64,000 nucleotides of DNA from Candidatus Moraniibacteriota bacterium (GCA_016699975.1 CP064994.1:129222-193221); one strand, 5' to 3'; positions 9,422-58,358 are shown, numbered from the stretch's first letter. Numbers and translations are program-made. Notes: generated by a model not told the origin, from the sequence alone.

Positions 9422-11080
9422 TCAAGAGGCGATACCCCTCCAAAAGGCGCTTCTCTCGATTTCCGGGGATATGGTGGAATTGGTATACACACACGTTTGA
9501 GGGGCGTGGCCATCTTGGCGTGAGGGTTCGAGTCCCTCTATCCCCACCAAATTGCAACTTTTTGCGGAATTGTCGCCCATGCGGGCGATTTTTTCTTTGG
9601 TTTTGCGGAGCAAAACCCAGATGTTTTCAGGGGGGAGAGCTGCGTTTGGGGCAGCCGTTGGCTGCGCCTTTTTGGATTTTAGAAACAGGTTCAATCCGTC
9701 CATTTTCAGAAAAGCCTCTTTTATGGCACTCGGCTCGCCACTTTTTGCAATTTCACAGAGAGAAACGGCTTGTTTGAGCCATTGGCGCATAGGTTCAACC
9801 CAACTCTTGCTGGCAAGCGTTAGCTTGCCGATTTGTTCTTCCAGCGACTTCTTTTCGCTCATTAGTTCACCCTGTCTAGTGCGATAGGTGTTCTGGTCGA
9901 TATCTTGATCTAAATAACTGTCTAAAAGTCGCTGGAGCTTGCCCTGCAAGCTCGCAAGTCGTGTTTGTGCGCTCGCCACAAACAAGCCAGATGTTTGGTT
10001 GGCTTTCTTTTCGTCCTCGTCCAGCATTTTGCCCAGCGTGGTCGCCCACGCTTGCGGCATAGCGTAGCTATGCAAAATGTCCGCCAACTGCGCTACTAAA
10101 TCAGGTTCAGTTACGGCTGGCTCAGTGCAACGGATTGTTTTGTGCTTTCTTGTGCAACGATAATACACATACTCGTGAATATTACCGTTCTTTTGGTGCT
10201 TTATCTTTTTCTCGGCAGTAACGGACAGTTTACACGTTGCACATTTGAGCAAACCGCAAAATATTTGCGGGGCAGTCGCGCCTTTTTGTGGTCGTCCACG
10301 CTTGGCAAGCGTAGCTTGCACCTCATCGAACAGTTTTTTGCTAATAATTGGGGCGTGTTTGCCCTCATGTATCTCGCCAGCATATTTGAAATGCCCATAG
10401 TAAAACGGATTGGTGAGTATGCGCTTAATTTTATCTTTCGGAAACTGTTTGCCAGACTTCGTTAGTATTCCTCTACTTGCTAGAAAAGCGGCGATATCCT
10501 CAAGCCGTTGATCACCTTTGGCGTATAGTTCAAAGGCTTCAGCAACGAGCGGCGACTGCCGGTTGTCTACAACAACGGTTTTCGTTCTTACGTCATTTAT
10601 ATACCCCACAGGCGCAAGCCCAGGGCGTTCACCCCTGCGGACTTTCTGGCGCAAACCTCGTTTTGTATTTTCAGATAGGTTGTCTACATAATATTTTGAC
10701 TGCCCGAATGCTATGGAGAGCATAAACTTGCCTTGTGAGGTATTTTCAAACCAAAAACTAGGAAACTTCAGTGTTCCTAGTTTGCCGCTGTCCAACAAAT
10801 AGACAATCTGCCCACCGTCCACACTATTCCTAGCTAGTCTGTCAGGGTGCCACGCCAAAATATTGCCGCCATCTTTTTCGATTTCAGCCAACAGTTTGCC
10901 AAATACTGGTCTGCCTGTCGTTTTTGCTGACTTTTTCTCTATGAACTCGGCTGCAATATATAAGTTTTCTCTTTTGGCATACTCTCGCAACTCTACCAGT
11001 TGCGCCTCAATGGACAAAACTTGTTTGTCCTCTACGTCAGTAGACTTTCTGGCGTACAGATAATATTTATTGTTTTGCAT
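9422..11080 (-). CDS. Large serine recombinase (resolvase/invertase catalytic domain, recombinase domain and Zn-ribbon)
   Basis: N-terminus YLYARKSTDVEDKQVLSIEAQ has the catalytic Ser and conserved Q. A Cys cluster CGLLKCATCK…YYRCTRK follows, and the C-terminal half is coiled-coil. The last 85 or so residues read through IR-A and antisense across the tRNA, so the true stop is uncertain. Confidence 0.85.
   Translation of the reverse strand: MQNNKYYLYARKSTDVEDKQVLSIEAQLVELREYAKRENLYIAAEFIEKKSAKTTGRPVFGKLLAEIEKDGGNILAWHPDRLARNSVDGGQIVYLLDSGKLGTLKFPSFWFENTSQGKFMLSIAFGQSKYYVDNLSENTKRGLRQKVRRGERPGLAPVGYINDVRTKTVVVDNRQSPLVAEAFELYAKGDQRLEDIAAFLASRGILTKSGKQFPKDKIKRILTNPFYYGHFKYAGEIHEGKHAPIISKKLFDEVQATLAKRGRPQKGATAPQIFCGLLKCATCKLSVTAEKKIKHQKNGNIHEYVYYRCTRKHKTIRCTEPAVTEPDLVAQLADILHSYAMPQAWATTLGKMLDEDEKKANQTSGLFVASAQTRLASLQGKLQRLLDSYLDQDIDQNTYRTRQGELMSEKKSLEEQIGKLTLASKSWVEPMRQWLKQAVSLCEIAKSGEPSAIKEAFLKMDGLNLFLKSKKAQPTAAPNAALPPENIWVLLRKTKEKIARMGDNSAKSCNLVGIEGLEPSRQDGHAPQTCVYTNSTISPEIERSAFWRGIAS
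9465..9549 (+). tRNA. tRNA-Leu(GAG), class II with long variable arm and encoded CCA
   Basis: GGGGATA acceptor stem, anticodon loop TTGAGGG, T-arm GAGGGTTCGAGTCCCTC, 3' end TATCCCC-A-CCA. The last 7 nt (CACCAAA) are repeated at 14087-14093. Confidence 0.85.
9543..9682. repeat. IR-A left copy of about 140 bp. It begins inside the tRNA 3' end and is the reverse complement of 11228..11365 with 2 mismatches.
   Basis: Direct comparison of the two stretches: CACCAAATTGCAACTTTTTGCGGAATTGTCGCCCATGCGGGCG… against the reverse complement of …CGCCCGCATGGGCGATAATTCCGCAAAAAGTTGCAATTTGGTG. Confidence 0.9.
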
Positions 11081-51123: not shown

Positions 51124-52505
51124 ATGAAAACGAAAACATGTTTCGCGAGGGCGGCTGCAGCCTTTCTTCTCGCGAGTTCGACGCTTCTTTTGTCTGGCTG
51201 TGGGCTCCGTACGTCGGACACGACCTACAAAATGAATTTGGAAATCTGGGGCGTTTTCGATGATTCCGATGCGTTCCAGCAAGTTATTGGGAAGTATAAG
51301 GAACTTAATCCGAATGTTGGGGAAGTTTCTTATCGAAAGTTTGCGGTTGATACGTATCGGCAAGACTTGATTGAAGCGCTCGCCGCCGGAAAGGGTCCAG
51401 ATATTTTCCTTGTGCGCAACTCTTGGACGCCGTCTTTTTCGGACAAAATCGTTCCTGCGCCGGAAGGTATGATGACGGAGCGAAACTATCGTGATACGTT
51501 CGTAGACACGGTTTCCGACGACTTCATTTCGAATGACAATAAGATACTCGGTGTTTCTTTGTCGGTCGATTCGCTCGCGCTCTACTATAATGAAGACCTT
51601 TTAAATGCTGCCGGTATCGCGACTCCTCCTAAAACATGGGACGAGTTTCAAGACGATATCCGCCTCCTGACACGCATCAATTCTTTCGGGGAAATTACGC
51701 AGGCGGGTGCCGCTCTTGGGACGGCGGAAAATATCAATCGCTCGACCGATATTTTAAGCGCCCTCTTTTTGCAAAATGGCGTCTTGGTGCCTCGAGGAAA
51801 TAGCAATGAACTGCACCTCAGTTCTGCGGCAGGTGTGAACGCCCTCTTCTATACACAATTTTCGAACCCCCAGGTCCTCTCTTTATACGTGGAACCCCTC
51901 TCTTCATTATTCGATTGACTCGTTTCCACGAGGGCACGACCGCAATGATGATTAATTATTCTTGGCACTACGATACGATTAAGCGAAAAAATTCGAAACT
52001 CAATTTCGGTGTGGCGCCGCTTCCTCAGTCAGTGGGAACGCAACCGTATAACTTTCCCGCATATTGGGGGTTTGTGGTGGCGAAGAACAAAACTGCTCCC
52101 GCGGGAACCAAAGATACGGCACTCTACGAAAGGGTACGGAGTTTTGAAGCGTGGCAATTTCTGAAGTATGCTGCTTTCCCAAACTCGGGGACGATTACAC
52201 TGCAGAATGCGCTCTCAGGAAATACGAAAAATTTTCAAACAAACTTTGATCCTGCAGCTGCTTACCTTACGAAAACTCGGCGTCCGGCAGCTCGGCGCGA
52301 CCTCGTCGAAAAGGAGCGGAATGATCCGGTGCTTGGTCCGTTTGCGGATGGGAATTTGCTTGCGCGAAACTGGCGGCAAGCCGATCCAGAAAGTATCGAA
52401 AAAATTCTCGGTGATATGATAACATCGGTAAACTTAGGTCGAGCGGATATATCGCAGGCGCTCGCGACAGCGGAGAGTCGCATTCAACAGCTTGGAAAAC
52501 GCTAA
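51124..52505 (+). CDS. ABC transporter extracellular solute-binding lipoprotein (sugar/oligosaccharide family 1 type), split by an apparent frameshift near 51905-51925
   Basis: Lipobox LLLSGCG after the signal peptide. The two adjacent ORFs (51124..51918 and 51915..52505) abut in different frames and together make a typical 450 aa SBP. Confidence 0.7.
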
Positions 52506-52539
52506 GATTTCATTCCTCTTCTCTTTTCTTCACTCTTCT

Positions 52540-54150
52540 CGTATGACGGTGATTCACACGATGGGACGATTTTTGTTCGCTGCGTTCTTTGGAGGAATTG
52601 CCTTGTTCCCAGTTATTTCGCGCGCCGCAGAGGTCAATTGCGAAGCGATTGGCGGAAGCTGTTCAACGAGTGTTTATTGTACGGATACGGCGCGATACGA
52701 GCCGCAATCAAAATCGGGAACGAGCTGTGAATCGAATACACTTGCAAAGCAATGTTGTATTCCAAAGGCGACTGCCGGATCATGTGACCCCTCCAAATGT
52801 CTCGCGAGCGCCAATTGCTCGGGAACGCTCGACTTTAACAAACACTGCTCGGGCGCCTCTTTTTGTTGCGGAGCTCCAAGCGCTGCCCAAGCCTGTACTG
52901 GCAAAGATGCAAGTGGAAATTCGCGTACAGGACAATGTTCGACATCCGCAACATGCGCGTCGGGAAACCCTCTTTCGGGCGCGTCGGGGTGTTCCGCAGG
53001 AATCGCGTGTTGCGGGTCTCTCTCTCCATCGCCCAGTGGGAGCTGCGAATCGACGGCGGGGCAAAAGTGTTCGTCTGACTGTACCAAAGAAAGCGGCTTT
53101 ACTGCGGGAGGCACCGGCAGCTGCTTTGATGCGGCGAAGAATCAATGTTGCAAACCGACGCAACCAACAGCGGGCAATTCCACAACAATGTGTTCCGGAT
53201 CGCAAAATTCCGGAATCGTGCCTTGTGGACGATCGTGCGACAATCCGGCGACACCGAACGATGAATCAAAAATTTGTACCCTCTGCCATCTTCTGTTGCT
53301 GGTACAAAATATCACCACATGGATTTTTACGGTGATGACGTATATCGCAATCGCCGTCATTGTAGCGATGGGTATTCTCTATATTGTTTCGGCGGGGAAG
53401 CCGGGACTTATCAATATTGCAAAAGGCGGCCTTTGGTCGACGCTTGTTGGATTTGCAGTGGTACTTCTTGGATGGGTCACCATCAATGTGATTTTGTTCG
53501 TTCTTGCAAATGGAACGCTCGGGCAAGATACGGCGACATTTTCGATCAAACAAAACGGAGCGTGGTTCGAATACCGTTGTGATGCGGAATCGAAATACAA
53601 ACGAACGGGACTGACGACTGGCGCCCCGGGATCTGCTCAGAATTCAGGAGGAGTGAATATTGGGGGAAGCAGCGGGGGAGGAGGAAATTGTTCCGTGGTC
53701 AACAATGCTTCATGCTTGTGCAGTCAAAATATGACCTGCTTTGGCTCTCAAAGTGCGCAAGAAGCGAGTAAAATTTGTAACTTTGAGAGTGGAGGGAAAG
53801 TTGATGCGGTGAGTGGTACGGATAAGTGTAAGGACGGAGCTTCTTTCTCGCATGGCATATGGCAAATAAATTTAGTAACTACAAAAGCGAGTAATGGGTT
53901 GCCGAGCGCCTGTGAAGGAGTATTTGTGGGTTCGATGGAATGTGTTCCGGGAGGCTATGTTACCAACTCGCAAGGAGTTCGGTATTGTGGAAAAAGGGAT
54001 TGCTCTGTGGCAAAGAAAGATCAGCTCGATGCATGTCTCAAAGCTATTCGAACTCCAGCTATAAACACAGCAGCCGCGTGCAGTCTCTATAAAGTTCAAG
54101 GATTTGATGCGTGGCCTCATACAAGAAGTACGTGCGGAGTTTCTAAGTGA
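52540..54150 (+). CDS. Pilin-array protein P1: signal peptide, about 240 aa of Cys-rich repeats, a two-helix VirB2/TrbC-like pilin module, a Gly-rich linker and a C-terminal lysozyme/SLT-like domain
   Basis: About 40 Cys in repeated CCxP…C units. Module …MTYIAIAVIVAMGILYIVSAGKPGLINIAKGGLWSTLVGFAVVLLGWV…. C-terminus …NFESGGKVDAVSG…GASFSHGIWQINL… resembles the ES…S…G…GLMQI pattern of lytic transglycosylases. The ORF opens at 52492; the start is chosen at MTVIHTMGRFLFAAFFGGIALFPVISRAAE. Confidence 0.6.
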   Translation, partial: RMTVIHTMGRFLFAAFFGGIALFPVISRAAEVNCEAIGGSCSTSVYCTDTARYEPQSKSGTSCESNTLAKQCCIPKATAGSCDPSKCLASANCSGTLDFNKHCSGASFCCGAPSAAQACTGKDASGNSRTGQCSTSATCASGNPLSGASGCSAGIACCGSLSPSPSGSCESTAGQKCSSDCTKESGFTAGGTGSCFDAAKNQCCKPTQPTAGNSTTMCSGSQNSGIVPCGRSCDNPATPNDESKICTLCHLLLLVQNITTWIFTVMTYIAIAVIVAMGILYIVSAGKPGLINIAKGGLWSTLVGFAVVLLGWVTINVILFVLANGTLGQDTATFSIKQNGAWFEYRCDAESKYKRTGLTTGAPGSAQNSGGVNIGGSSGGGGNCSVVNNASCLCSQNMTCFGSQSAQEASKICNFESGGKVDAVSGTDKCKDGASFSHGIWQINLVTTKASNGLPSACEGVFVGSMECVPGGYVTNSQGVRYCGKRDCSVAKKDQLDACLKAIRTPAINTAAACSLYKVQGFDAWPHTRSTCGVSK

Positions 54151-54701
54151 TTTTTTCGGTAATTTTTCATAGACTTATGAGAAAAGGATACATAATACTT
54201 CTTTTTTTGATCGGCACCCTCCTTGCTGGAGGAATAATTTTCTTCTTGAGATATAGAGGAAATACGGACTCTCTTCCTGTAATTGTTGAGAATAATCGTG
54301 TCACGGGGTATTTCAAAATTGAGGAATCGTCGTCGGCGCCACAAAAGAGGGTATCGATTCAGAATGAAAAAGGAGAGAAGGTGGTAGTAAACAATTTCTT
54401 ACCCGAAGCGAAGCCTCTTAATGAGGCAGGGGACTTAGCGCTTACTCCTGCTCCCGATGTCTATACTCTTCCTGACTACGATATTGCATTTTATGAGCAA
54501 GGGGCGGTATTTCGAATCAGTATCAATGTGGGACCGATCGATACCGTGCGCAAGACTGCAGAAAACGAATTTTTAAGGAAACTTGGTATCTCTCAAGAGG
54601 AAGCATACAAGCTGAACACGTATGTCGGTGTCTCAAAAGAAGTGGATGAAACGTATGCTGGCAGAAATATCGGGCTTAGTTTTTGCAATCCTTCAAGGTA
54701 A
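54147..54701 (+). CDS. Hypothetical membrane-anchored protein inside the pilin array
   Basis: N-terminal TM segment ILLFLIGTLLAGGIIFFL, then a soluble domain with no motifs. Confidence 0.45.
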   Translation: MIFSVIFHRLMRKGYIILLFLIGTLLAGGIIFFLRYRGNTDSLPVIVENNRVTGYFKIEESSSAPQKRVSIQNEKGEKVVVNNFLPEAKPLNEAGDLALTPAPDVYTLPDYDIAFYEQGAVFRISINVGPIDTVRKTAENEFLRKLGISQEEAYKLNTYVGVSKEVDETYAGRNIGLSFCNPSR

Positions 54702-54727
54702 AGCATACGAAGTAATAGCATATTAAT

Positions 54728-55027
54728 ATGATTGCTGCAGCTGCTGGAGTGATTGATGATGCGCCGACATTTGCGGAAGCGTTTCTTCGTCTCTTGCAAT
54801 TTTTGTTGGCGATATTCGGAATACTTGTTATAATTCTTCTCGTTATCGCAGGAGTTTTGTACATGACTTCTGGCGGAAGTGAGGCGCAGGCCACTCTTGC
54901 GAAGAAGGCGCTTTCCGGGGAATTCCCGGTTCTTGGGACTGGGGTCGTTCGTACTCGTTCGTGCGTTTGCCGCATTTTTCGCCGTCTGAGTCTTCCTCAT
55001 TCGAAAAGATCTTCTGAATATTTTTGA
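54728..55027 (+). CDS. Pilin-array protein P3, a short pilin-like hairpin protein with a probable frameshift (true stop at about 54989)
   Basis: …FLRLLQFLLAIFGILVIILLVIAGVLYMTSGGSEAQATLAKKAL. The second hydrophobic helix (…SRFLGLGSFVLVRAFAAFFAV*) appears only after a 1-bp shift in the GGGG run. Confidence 0.5.
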   Translation: MIAAAAGVIDDAPTFAEAFLRLLQFLLAIFGILVIILLVIAGVLYMTSGGSEAQATLAKKALSGEFPVLGTGVVRTRSCVCRIFRRLSLPHSKRSSEYF

Positions 55028-55284
55028 TGGAAATTTGGTGGATTCTCTGGAAATTTGTTTGTAAGAGAGGATGTGCAATCTTTATAAGAGATTTGAGAAA
55101 AACCGTAAGATATTTTTTGTTCTCTCATTGAGAAAGGGAAAAAGATTTGACAAGAAAGTACTCGAAAAGAAAGATGGGTGCCGTTTTCTTTCTTCTCACG
55201 GTGCTTTTTCGGATGTCTTCGACAAAAAATATTTCAGAGTTGTTAAGAGAGAAGTACGTACTTTGATAGAAAGGAGGTGGATAT

Positions 55285-55665
55285 ATGAAACAATCACTCA
55301 TATTGAAGCACGTGGGGGCACTCGCTGTTTCACTTCTCGTGTTTTCGGTGCCTTTGGTGGTATTCGGACAGTGGACCGCGGGGCAAAATAACGCTCAGAG
55401 TGGCGGAACGCCAGACTCTTCTATTTACGAGATTATTCGCACGACGATGAACTATCTCCTCGCGATTCTTGGCTTCATCGCGATTATTGCGTTTGTTATT
55501 GCGGGTATTCTCTACCTTACCGCGTTTGGAGATGAAAAACGTATTGGAACGGCAAAAAATGCAATGTTCTATTCGATAGTCGGCATTATCGTGGCGCTTA
55601 TCGGCTACGTTATCGTAAACGCGGTAGACTCGTGGCTTCGTGCCGGAGCGAACACGCAAATATAG
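55285..55665 (+). CDS. Pilin-array protein P4, the minimal form: signal peptide, a short polar N-region and the pilin module
   Basis: MKQSLILKHVGALAVSLLVFSVPLVVFGQ | …IYEIIRTTMNYLLAILGFIAIIAFVIAGILYLTAFGDEKRIGTAKNAMFYSIVGIIVALIGYVIVNAVDSWLR. Confidence 0.65.
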   Translation: MKQSLILKHVGALAVSLLVFSVPLVVFGQWTAGQNNAQSGGTPDSSIYEIIRTTMNYLLAILGFIAIIAFVIAGILYLTAFGDEKRIGTAKNAMFYSIVGIIVALIGYVIVNAVDSWLRAGANTQI

Positions 55666-55887
55666 GAATTCTTCGAAGGTTTCTTACGAAGCGCTTCTGA
55701 CTCTCATGTCGGAAGCGTTTTGGTTTTTATCTGAGAATTACAAAGAAGGAATGGGAAAAAACTTTTTGAGAATTTTTCCTCCGTACCGCTGAGAAGTGTT
55801 TGGGTGCTTTTGGGAAAAAGTTTCATTGTGTCTTCGCATTGGAAAAAGCGTTTCTTACAAAATGTCTTTTTGTGGTATACTTTCTGT

Positions 55888-56316
55888 ATGCTTTTCGTTC
55901 GCACCACTTTTTCTTTTTTGGTCCTCGTGTCACTCCTCTTTGTGCCGAGCAATTTTTCGGTTGCCCAAACAACAACGCCGACGCCGGGCACAATCGACAC
56001 AAGTACCGGATGGACAGGAGGATTCCAGGCGGTGAAAGACAATTCGGGATTGTCAGGGAAGGGTGTTGATGTGATTGTCTCGGGATTTATGATGTGGCTT
56101 CTCGTCATTGTTGGCTTTCTCTCGATTATCGCCTTTATTATTGCCGGCATCATGTACCTGACCGCAGCGGGAAATGACGGGCAGATCAAAAATGCAAAGC
56201 AAGCCATGTTCTATTCTATTGTCGGCGTTATCGTAGCGCTCGTCGGGTATGTGGTGATACAGGCAGTCGACTTTCTGTTGCGCGGGGCGGATTCAACTGG
56301 TTCAATAACTTTGTAA
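55888..56316 (+). CDS. Pilin-array protein P5: signal peptide, a Thr/Gly-rich N-domain and the pilin module
   Basis: MLFVRTTFSFLVLVSLLFVPSNFSVAQ | …MMWLLVIVGFLSIIAFIIAGIMYLTAAGNDGQIKNAKQAMFYSIVGVIVALVGYVVIQAVD…. Confidence 0.65.
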   Translation: MLFVRTTFSFLVLVSLLFVPSNFSVAQTTTPTPGTIDTSTGWTGGFQAVKDNSGLSGKGVDVIVSGFMMWLLVIVGFLSIIAFIIAGIMYLTAAGNDGQIKNAKQAMFYSIVGVIVALVGYVVIQAVDFLLRGADSTGSITL

Positions 56317-56345
56317 TTTTACCTTTAAATTTCTGAAGCTTTATT

Positions 56346-56666
56346 ATGGAGCCATTTTTTATAGAGGACAGTATAGAGGACAAGCCTTACATGCAGGGAG
56401 CGGCTACTTCGAATCTTCCCGATGCGGGAATTTACGAAATTGTTGCCGCCACTATGGATTGGCTTCTCGCGATTCTCGGTTTTATTGCAATTATCGGCTT
56501 TGTCATTGCCGGCATCATGTACCTGACCGCAGCGGGAAATGACGGGCAGATCAAAAATGCAAAGCAAGCCATGTTCTATTCTATTGTCGGCGTTATCGTA
56601 GCGCTCGTCGGGTATGTGGTGATACAGGCAGTCGACTTGTGGCTCAATGCGAGCTCCCAATTTTAG
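56346..56666 (+). CDS. Pilin-array protein P6. Its pilin module is 100% identical at DNA level over 139 bp to P5; the N-region differs and has no obvious signal peptide.
   Basis: …IYEIVAATMDWLLAILGFIAIIGFVIAGIMYLTAAGNDGQIKNAKQAMFYSIVGVIVALVGYVVIQAVDLWL. Confidence 0.6.
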   Translation: MEPFFIEDSIEDKPYMQGAATSNLPDAGIYEIVAATMDWLLAILGFIAIIGFVIAGIMYLTAAGNDGQIKNAKQAMFYSIVGVIVALVGYVVIQAVDLWLNASSQF

Positions 56667-56681
56667 AGGTCTTGGGTATCT

Positions 56682-57401
56682 ATGAAGAAATATCTTTTCG
56701 TTTTTCTTGTTTCTCTGTGTGCAGGCGCTTTTTTTTCTCCCGAAGCGCTCTTTGCGCAGAAGAAAGATCCCTGCGGTGCGGGGGGAGCGGGAACTTGTCA
56801 AACGCCCGTGAACGGATCGCAGTGTCCTCAGGGGAGTTACCTTGGCTGGAGCCCAAGCTGTTCCTCCCCGACTATTTGTTGCGCTTCTTCGGGAGGAACA
56901 GGAACGCAGGTGACGGGATGTCCGATGTTAAACCCGGCTCGTTGCCAGACCACGCCTTGCCCGGATAAAACTTTCAATAATGCTGCTTGCGCCTCGCAGT
57001 GCTCTGCCGGCACGTATTATTGTGAACCAGTTATCGATGTCACGGGATCCGTTACCACGGTGAAATGCGATCCGACAAAGTTTAAAGAATATGCGGGAGT
57101 TTGTTTTCCTCTCAAGGAGACAACAGGATTGTCAGAAACATCGGTTGCCGAGATTGTCGTCAATCTCATGCGCTGGATGCTCTTTCTGTTCGGGTTTCTC
57201 GCGATCATTGCATTTATTATTTCTGGTATTCAGTACCTCACGTCGGCTGGCAATATGAATACGATCGAAACGGCGAAGCGCAATATGAAGTATTCCATCA
57301 TCGGTGTTATCGTTGCTCTTGCGGGGCTTGTCATCATAGTGGCGATCGATGCACTCCTGCGCGGAACAGCTTGGGGAGGTGGCGGAGCGGTGACCTTTTA
57401 A
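56682..57401 (+). CDS. Pilin-array protein P7: signal peptide, a Cys-rich domain of about 130 aa and the pilin module
   Basis: MKKYLFVFLVSLCAGAFFSPEALFAQ | 17 Cys including CCASSGG…C. Module …MRWMLFLFGFLAIIAFIISGIQYLTSAGNMNTIETAKRNMKYSIIGVIVALAGLVIIVAIDALL. Confidence 0.65.
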   Translation: MKKYLFVFLVSLCAGAFFSPEALFAQKKDPCGAGGAGTCQTPVNGSQCPQGSYLGWSPSCSSPTICCASSGGTGTQVTGCPMLNPARCQTTPCPDKTFNNAACASQCSAGTYYCEPVIDVTGSVTTVKCDPTKFKEYAGVCFPLKETTGLSETSVAEIVVNLMRWMLFLFGFLAIIAFIISGIQYLTSAGNMNTIETAKRNMKYSIIGVIVALAGLVIIVAIDALLRGTAWGGGGAVTF

Positions 57402-57435
57402 CTTTTCGAACGACGGTCGTTATTTCATAATTTCT

Positions 57436-58358
57436 ATGAAGACTTGCACGAGTTTCGTAAGGGGGATTTTCCTTGGGATGGTTTTTTTTTCTCGAGCCTA
57501 TTTTTTGTTACCGAAAATGCCGCTGCGCAAGGCACGAGCTGCCCGAGCCCTGAAACAAACTGCAAGGCGGAATGTACGAATCAGGTGACTGCTTGTGCGA
57601 GCGCGTGCGCAAACCAAGGAAGCAACTTGTACTACTGCCCTTCTGGCTCAAGCACTTGTAATGCAAGCTACTGCAAGTCGGCCTGTGATATGAATACTGA
57701 TGACACCACGCAAACGGCTTGCAACAGTGTTTGTAAGACGCCAGGCTTGTCACAGTATTGTCCTCCGAAAGGGAGCTCTCCTCCTGATGGAACGACGGGA
57801 CCCGGCGCGACCAATGTCATCGATATTTCTCTTCCTAATCCGCTCAAGTACAATACGGTTCAAGAAGTTGTCATGGCGCTCCTCTACGCGCTTCAGGGCA
57901 TCATCGTGATTCTTTCTTTGGTTTTTATTGTTTTTGGTGCGGTTCTCTACATTACGTCGGCCGGGAACCAATCTCGCGTGACCGCTGCAAAAACAGCGAT
58001 TACCGCGGCCCTTATCGGACTCGCGATCGGAATTCTCGCGCCCACATTTCTCAAAGAGATCGCTACTATTCTCGGATGGAATGCTACCGCGCCGCTTCCG
58101 CCCGAAGTCACGAATGCGCGTGGCGCGGCCGATATTCTTCTTTCGGCGCTCAATTTCCTCTTGGGAATGGTAGGAATTCTCGCGATTATTATGTTGGTGG
58201 TGGGTGGCATTATGTTCTTGGGAGCGGCGGGCGATACAACTCGTGTTTCTACAGCAAAGAAGATTGTAACGTATGCGCTCCTCGGTCTTGTCGTCGCGCT
58301 CGGATCTTTGGTGGTGGTGAGACAGCTCGCAGAATTTTTTGCAGGGACAACCTCATAG
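57436..58358 (+). CDS. Pilin-array protein P8: signal peptide, a Cys-rich domain and two tandem pilin modules. The start is restored across a T9 homopolymer; the ORF as sequenced runs 57444..58358.
   Basis: With T10 instead of T9 the N-terminus reads MKTCTSFVRGIFLGMVFFFSSLFFVTENAAAQG | TSCPSPETNCKAEC…. Module A …GIIVILSLVFIVFGAVLYITSAGNQSRVTAAKTAITAALIGLAIGIL. Module B …FLLGMVGILAIIMLVVGGIMFLGAAGDTTRVSTAKKIVTYALLGLVVALGSLVV. Confidence 0.6.

Follow-up and report, generated by a model that had tools for sequence, protein, structure and literature searches.

Very probable recent gene conversion in the core of two adjacent VirB2-like pilin genes of a Candidatus Moraniibacteriota bacterium

How can two neighboring pilin genes that differ at both ends carry the same DNA, base for base, in their middle? 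The question is raised by a tandem array of VirB2-like pilin genes in a 64,000-nucleotide stretch from a Candidatus Moraniibacteriota bacterium (GCA_016699975.1, CP064994.1:129222-193221), and in particular by its adjacent members P5 and P6. This whole stretch is referred to as the window; all positions are window coordinates, and the array genes (P1 and P3 to P8) all lie on the + strand. A sequence-only reading of the window had reported a perfect 139-bp direct repeat in P5 and P6 at 56135-56273 and 56500-56638 and had ascribed it to cassette genes having recently undergone gene conversion or recombination with one another. Our analysis leads to the same kind of process over a slightly shorter tract: the repeat, 134 bp in length, very probably arose by intragenomic gene conversion, a very recent event between two adjacent paralogs that are themselves old.

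An exact repeat within the pilin cores of P5 and P6

P5 (55888-56316, 142 amino acids [aa], QQS21083.1, IPL87_00915) is composed of a signal peptide, a short Thr/Gly-rich N-terminal domain (N-domain), a two-helix core, and the tail FLLRGADSTGSITL. P6 (56346-56666, 106 aa, QQS21084.1, IPL87_00920) is without a signal peptide and consists of a two-helix core ending in the tail LWLNASSQF. The two proteins are 73% identical over the aligned part. Sequence comparison places the maximal exact direct repeat at 56140-56273 and 56505-56638, with an offset of 365 bp. A long exact repeat is therefore present as had been claimed, whereas the length and coordinates given for it were off by 5 bp; the five bases preceding the repeat read TTATT in one copy and TTGTC in the other and mismatch at two of the five positions. 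The string quoted for the repeat, attgccggcatcatg...caggcagtcgac, was right and begins at 56140 and 56505.

Copy 1 covers codons 85-128 of P5 plus 2 nt of codon 129 and encodes IAGIMYLTAAGNDGQIKNAKQAMFYSIVGVIVALVGYVVIQAVD, and copy 2 covers codons 54-97 of P6 plus 2 nt of codon 98; the first base of the repeat coincides with a codon boundary in both genes. A repeat search assigned both copies to a four-member family of 213-bp modules that are elsewhere 61-65% identical. The divergence of the flanks, also part of the earlier claim, was borne out: the 79 bp on the 5' side (56061-56139, the unconverted 5' part of the P5 pilin module corresponding to helix 1) are homologous to 56426-56504 in P6 and ~64% identical, while the 3' sides are unrelated (~20-25%). 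The AlphaFold2 model of P6 predicts a helical hairpin with helices at residues 29-61 and 66-104 (mean predicted local distance difference test score 73.7), and on this model the tract takes in the final eight residues of helix 1 as well as the loop and the greater part of helix 2. The N-domains and the C-terminal tails of P5 and P6, the latter being FLLRGADSTGSITL versus LWLNASSQF, fall outside the tract and are gene specific.

The synonymous sites carry the argument for gene conversion. In a codon-aligned comparison, P5 and P6 agree in all 44 codons of the tract, whereas third-position identity in every other paralog or ortholog pair ranges from 0.29 to 0.62, near saturation. As the synonymous sites have been homogenized, selection at the protein level cannot account for the identity. 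A GENECONV-style permutation test, based on 116 variable sites among P4 to P7, found P5 and P6 to agree at 69 consecutive variable sites, a run that none of 20,000 permutations reached (p<5e-5); no other pair among P4 to P7 was significant.

The duplication that separates P5 from P6 is old, because their gene-specific N-terminal parts are still recognizable in lineages that are ~65% identical in protein. P5-type parts (DTSTGWTGG.QAVKD..., a motif common to the P5 orthologs P0002-P0009) and leaderless P6-type parts (KPY.EGG...MDWLLAI) adjoin in these lineages as they do in the window. Over the 26 codons 5' of the tract, the P5 of the window is nearest to the P5 orthologs of contigs L023, L026, and L025, and its P6 is nearest to the P6 orthologs of L010, L023, and L026. 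Over the 44 codons of the tract, however, P5 and P6 are each nearest to their own neighbor. The synonymous identity, the sharp tract edges, and this conflict between tract and flank uphold the earlier proposal that gene conversion or recombination took place recently. Residue signatures suggest a P5-type start of the tract, to judge from the residues IAG and from a V53I variant of P6 described below, and a P6-type 3' half, in which YSIVGVIVALVGYVVIQAVD matches the lineage B P6 exactly. It is possible, judging from these few residues, that the tract is a mosaic of events with exchange in both directions.

Independent contigs and related arrays

Eight short contigs from six other samples were recovered by exact look-ups of neighboring proteins, and their naming (k141-style, NODE-style, and Logan) points to at least three assembly approaches. 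Contigs L001-L003 match the window at 99.8-100%; starting in P4 or P5, they traverse the whole of copy 1 and the spacer and terminate within copy 2. L007, a Logan contig (k=31), breaks off after exactly the first 30 nt of copy 1, and its partner L005, which comes from the same sample, opens with exactly the last 30 nt of copy 2; L004 and L006 likewise begin inside copy 2. Contig breaks k-1 nt within the repeat edges imply a true exact two-copy repeat, and an artifact private to the source assembly is thereby ruled out. The sequence-only reading had also considered the locus a collapse-prone site for the assembler, and it was right in that public contigs built from short reads terminate at the repeat or within it; the two-copy arrangement is nonetheless real. 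The label of L003, MUNK22-1, is one that we take to suggest a global sewage survey.

Further arrays were gathered by a metagenome scan. The identity of P5 and P6 in the tract, 100% in the window with a third-position identity of 1.00, amounts to 87% in lineage C (L024 and L025; third positions 0.71-0.73), 83% in L016 (0.60) as well as in L041 and L042 (0.67), 81% in L009 and L033 (0.62), and 79% in L017 and L044 (0.62), while lineage B, with 76-81% and 0.38-0.53, is at background. In the module part 5' of the tract, the same pairs have a third-position identity of only 0.27-0.54.

The tract edge varies inside the species of the window, and the process is still going on. Over 985 bp, L002 differs from the window at only two positions, 56502 and 56504, (G/C in the window, A/T in L002), and both changes turn P6 into the P5 state (Val53 to Ile), so that the identity begins 7 bp earlier and the tract measures 141 bp. 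As the flanking mismatches are separated by only 4-5 identical bases, L002 is not a de Bruijn-graph chimera. In lineage C, the two strains L024 and L025 (the latter from activated sludge, according to its record name) are 98% identical overall. In L025, the homology of P5 and P6 ends before the tails, whereas in L024 it extends over 177 bp at 92.7%, through the tail and the stop codon, and P6 has a P5-type tail. The 13 mismatches within this homology imply that it is not a graph loop.

The repeat had further been proposed as a substrate for deletion or duplication of the intervening 365 bp, and this is plausible. The inter-copy segment (56274-56504) comprises the P5 tail and stop codon, a 29-bp intergenic gap, the P6 N terminus, and helix 1 of P6. 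This segment and one copy add up to the 365 bp that would be lost or doubled if the copies recombined by crossover, and the predicted product is an in-frame P5::P6 fusion of 137 aa. A gene of this form is present in L022 of lineage B (sample ERZ27283032), where a normal P5 with one mismatch continues to nt 1242, is P6-type from there to the stop codon, and is followed directly by P7. This P5N::P6C fusion without a P6 N-domain occurs in one contig, compared with more than 30 contigs with the normal gene. Alternatively, the assembler could have threaded the contig through an exact repeat of P5 and P6, and such a repeat would itself imply a conversion tract in that strain. In L048, from a distant Patescibacteria lineage, two adjacent pilins (187-410 and 723-946) share a 224-bp tract at 94.6%, 172 bp of it exact, that spans the whole module and the tail, and the N-domains of the two pilins differ.

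A P7 ortholog of lineage B occurs in two forms within sample ERZ724522, a short one (L030 962-1492) and a long one (L035 ~252-1314; compare L022 1385-2130). In place of the ~480 nt with which the long coding region opens, the short form has ~100 nt that include a different signal peptide. The two forms are an N-domain polymorphism within a population.

Gene conversion of this kind would proceed by nonreciprocal homologous recombination between tandem paralogs 365 bp apart, presumably of the RecA type, and would homogenize the filament-forming core. Repeated exchange of this part between P5 and P6 has also taken place in related lineages, so that the core evolves in concert and the ends diverge. 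Tracts confined to the core might persist because the subunits must stay compatible within one filament; a diversifying pressure on the ends, combined with compatible cores in a mixed filament, would then explain the limits of the tract, although this is speculation. In the F-pilus, the subunit exposes both its N and C termini on the filament surface and points its loop into the lumen. By analogy, the converted part would be the buried core and the unconverted ends would be the exposed parts.

Competing explanations

A repeat this perfect might have been made in the computer: long-read assembly or short-read polishing might have turned two differing copies into identical ones or duplicated a single copy. 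The source does resemble a long-read assembly with residual indel errors. In comparison with Illumina-derived contigs (L004, L005, L007, and L008), the window has clustered indels at 53712-53752 in P1 and 54916-54933 in P3 and differs in homopolymer length at 55112 and 57482-57483, and such local indels in neighboring genes fit a long-read origin. However, no indel difference falls within the repeat, the short-read contigs from the six other samples match the window over copy 1, over the spacer, and at either end of copy 2, and internal differences would have shifted the contig breaks to the differing sites, which makes an assembly or polishing artifact very improbable. The shortness of P6, its missing signal peptide, and its position immediately 3' of P5 might instead suggest that P6, or its 3' half, was newly copied from P5. 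Leaderless P6 orthologs with the KPY.EGG...MDWLLAI signature nevertheless lie directly 3' of P5 in L010, L023, L025, and L026-L031, further P6 orthologs are on record in many other lineages, and the region just 5' of the tract is homologous yet substitution-saturated. A recent partial duplication is thus extremely improbable, being excluded by the P6 orthologs. As for selection on a DNA- or RNA-level element that holds the identity in both genes, Rfam gave no match at E<=1 over either copy (four matches elsewhere in 52-59 kb score far below the gathering scores), the predicted folding of the tract is no more stable than that of shuffled sequence (z = -1.29), and the P5/P6 tract is only 74-87% identical in related genomes. 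The probability of such an element is extremely low.

The sequence-only reading had gone beyond gene conversion and linked the repeat to phase or antigenic variation of the N-terminal domains. In a dedicated variation system, recombination at the core would shuffle, delete, or duplicate N-domains and tails for phase or antigenic variation or for host-range switching, in the manner of pilE/pilS. The in-frame fusion expected from a crossover between the copies, the L022 gene as such a fusion in a sister lineage, the swapped tail of L024, the coexistence of long and short P7 N-domain forms in one sample, and a tract edge that is not the same across samples would all fit, and it has been speculated that Patescibacteria pilin arrays aid adaptation to different host strains (PMC12102498). 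It is, however, the conserved core that was transferred and not the variable parts, the tract being the most conserved part of the module. P5 and P6 are complete open reading frames (ORFs), 29 bp apart, that share one promoter-like site, which is not a layout of silent cassettes and expression site; the absence of a leader in P6 is conserved in its orthologs. No G-quadruplex motif (G3+N1-7 x4) was present on either strand of the whole window. Moreover, gene order is the same in all region-spanning contigs of the species, which are fragmentary and of low coverage, and a protein of this species joining the P5 N-domain to the P6 tail, or the P6 N-part to the P5 tail, was found nowhere in a set of 5.8 billion proteins, where the cluster listings were single-member; the power of this search is low because the contigs of the species are short. 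The fusion in the sister lineage, finally, is confined to one contig against more than 30 normal ones and may be a path through an exact repeat. Overall, these observations do not support programmed variation of the N-domains, and a dedicated system appears quite unlikely. We also consider it unlikely that the conserved helix-loop-helix core of Patescibacteria VirB2-like pilin genes acts as a recombination anchor through which arrays continually rearrange surface-exposed N-domains and C-tails by shuffling, fusion, deletion, and new pairing. If it did, the surface of a pilus known to be essential in one cultivated Saccharibacterium could change fast, and host-dependent bacteria could follow or switch host strains.

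Gene conversion between P5 and P6, which we favor, has points against it as well. The linkage of the P6 N-part, the repeat, and the P6 tail is seen in the source assembly alone: exact look-ups of P6 with both possible starts returned 0 records, and hence no independent contig covers all of copy 2. The co-assembly rationale for the tract limits is speculative, and tails can be swapped (L024 and L022). A concerted change of the loop is not universal, as P0008 and P0104, which may stem from different genomes, do not co-vary. The synonymous divergence of the relatives is too high for a fine DNA phylogeny.

The pilin array and its counterparts elsewhere

The array extends over 52492-58358 and holds eight pilin modules in seven genes, with one non-pilin ORF among them. 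Its products match Pfam PF18895 (T4SS_pilin, VirB2-like; T4SS, type IV secretion system), which has a curated cut-off of 26.6 bits. P8 (57.4 bits), P4 (38.3 bits), P6 (34.4 bits), and P7 (29.7 bits) all score above it. P5 falls slightly below at 25.3 bits, but it aligns throughout with the other members and its database entry carries PF18895. The exact P5 protein is on record, and the GenBank entries of P5 and P6 belong to a Candidatus Moraniibacteriota metagenome-assembled genome on a single 1,048,819-bp contig, and the closest GTDB genomes are also Moranbacteria. As regards similarity to solved VirB2/TraA/TrbC pilin structures, a profile search of PDB sequences found nothing significant, and Foldseek returned 0 PDB matches for the AlphaFold2 model, simple helical hairpins being poor queries.

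The first gene, P1 (52492-54150, 552 aa), combines Cys-rich repeats, one pilin module, and a C-terminal domain, and its orthologs hold the equivalent position in L009 and L007. The Cys-rich repeats number about four and each terminate in CC, an architecture that is the same in L009. The C-terminal domain of ~190 aa contains ESGG...GIWQIN, which resembles catalytic motifs of lytic transglycosylases (VirB1-like); it gave no Pfam match and, by phmmer, no match to a PDB sequence. The non-pilin ORF (54147-54701), likewise without a Pfam match, is followed by P3 (54728-55027), which is apparently truncated in the window and intact, as an 88-aa pilin, in the same-species contig L007. P4 (55285-55665) is a 126-aa pilin paralog whose helix-1 part is the nearest relative of that of P6 within the window and whose module, 67-68% identical in the tract, is unconverted. 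Downstream of P6, P7 (56682-57401) is a 239-aa pilin with a Cys-rich N-domain and is also unconverted. P8 (57436-58358, start approximate) has two pilin modules and is split in the window by a T-run at 57482-57490 that is 2 nt longer than in the Illumina-derived contigs; their version begins with an ATG at 57436, has a proper signal peptide, and measures 306 aa. The truncation of P3 and the split of P8 probably reflect long-read errors left uncorrected, the alternative being strain-specific frameshifts. The layout of the array is kept in L009, L010, and the contigs of lineages B and C.

Consensus scans revealed a terminator-like hairpin with a T-run 3' of P4 (55687-55722, + strand) and a promoter-like site, CTTACA-16-TG-TATACT, 7 nt 5' of the P5 ATG (55854-55881, + strand), and on account of these two sites P5-P6-P7-P8 may be a single transcription unit. 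The extended -10 (TG-TATACT) ends 7 nt before the P5 ATG with no Shine-Dalgarno sequence in between, so that P5 may be translated from a leaderless mRNA. P6 and its orthologs P0013-P0022 and P0104-P0109 are 95-113 aa long and, unlike other array members, have no signal peptide; one P6 relative with a leader lies in L009 (10396-10776). At the 5' end of P6 (56360-56381), two copies of the 10-nt direct repeat TATAGAGGAC follow each other at a 12-nt period and encode IEDSIED, and a GAGGA 11 nt 5' of an internal ATG (56391) could mark an alternative start.

No virB4-sized gene was found within the 64-kb window, where the ORFs of at least 550 aa are housekeeping genes, a serine recombinase, or P1. 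Proximity to virB4 is not a strict requirement, since only 1135 of 1948 assemblies have a pilin gene near virB4 (PMC12102498). The other genes of the window include those for PNPase, GyrA, FtsH, TilS, ribosomal protein S1, ribonucleotide reductase, IF-2, and NusA. The large serine recombinase (9422-11080, - strand, 552 aa), with Resolvase, Recombinase, and zinc ribbon domains, lies among housekeeping genes and may mark an integrated element. In L025, a small GIY-YIG nuclease gene (2589-2873) is located inside the array between P3 and P4, and it could stimulate recombination; genes flanking arrays elsewhere include AbiEii (L028) and Fic (L026).

The repeat in P5 and P6 is a new instance of a classical process, the concerted evolution of part of duplicated genes, in a newly appreciated family. 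It indicates that at least some array members do not evolve independently, their core being repeatedly homogenized while the ends stay distinct or are swapped. For pilins presumed to mediate contact with host bacteria, this constrains models in which several pilins co-assemble and points to the protein ends as the parts under diversifying pressure. On the practical side, the repeat breaks short-read assemblies, and the local indel errors in the neighboring pilin genes of the source genome affect annotation of the array.

Concerted evolution by gene conversion is familiar from tufA/tufB in Salmonella and from the 3' segments of babA/babB in Helicobacter pylori; in the latter pair, the 3' part is conserved and homogenized, the 5' part is distinct, and chimeric genes occur. 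As in these systems, the paralogs studied here are, in one segment only, closer to each other than to their orthologs, with sharp edges and homogenized synonymous sites. The differences lie in the gene family, in the organism, an ultrasmall, probably epibiotic wastewater bacterium with a genome of ~1 Mb, and in the distance between the partners of only 365 bp. The pilE/pilS system of Neisseria is likewise one in which copies of pilin genes undergo homologous recombination, with conserved stretches as anchors. However, it belongs to a type IV pilus, whereas the array encodes VirB2-like pilins, has neither a silent-cassette layout nor a G-quadruplex motif, and has transferred the conserved core.

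Closer in gene family are the virB2 paralogs of Bartonella and Anaplasma cited in PMC12102498, which share tandem amplification and divergence of VirB2-type genes and for which host interaction and immune evasion are discussed, although the T4SS class and the organisms differ. In Candidatus Southlakia epibionticum, the one cultivated Patescibacterium with genetic studies, the T4SS and the series of pilins in its cluster are essential for epibiotic growth (PMC10633639), whereas the present window is without a virB4-sized gene. Gene conversion in Patescibacteria pilin arrays is mentioned neither in PMC12102498 nor in PMC10633639 nor in a recent T4SS review, and no report of it was found in the literature. 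The Patescibacteria survey describes 441 tandem arrays of 2-11 VirB2-like pilin genes (PF18895/PF04956), which are widespread in the phylum and whose members have a mean within-array amino acid identity of 25% and a maximum of 54% (PMC12102498). The array of the window shares with these its Pfam family, its phylum, and a tandem layout of divergent members, but against the high divergence surveyed there it sets a perfect 134-bp tract and two neighbors, P5 and P6, that are 73% identical over their aligned part.

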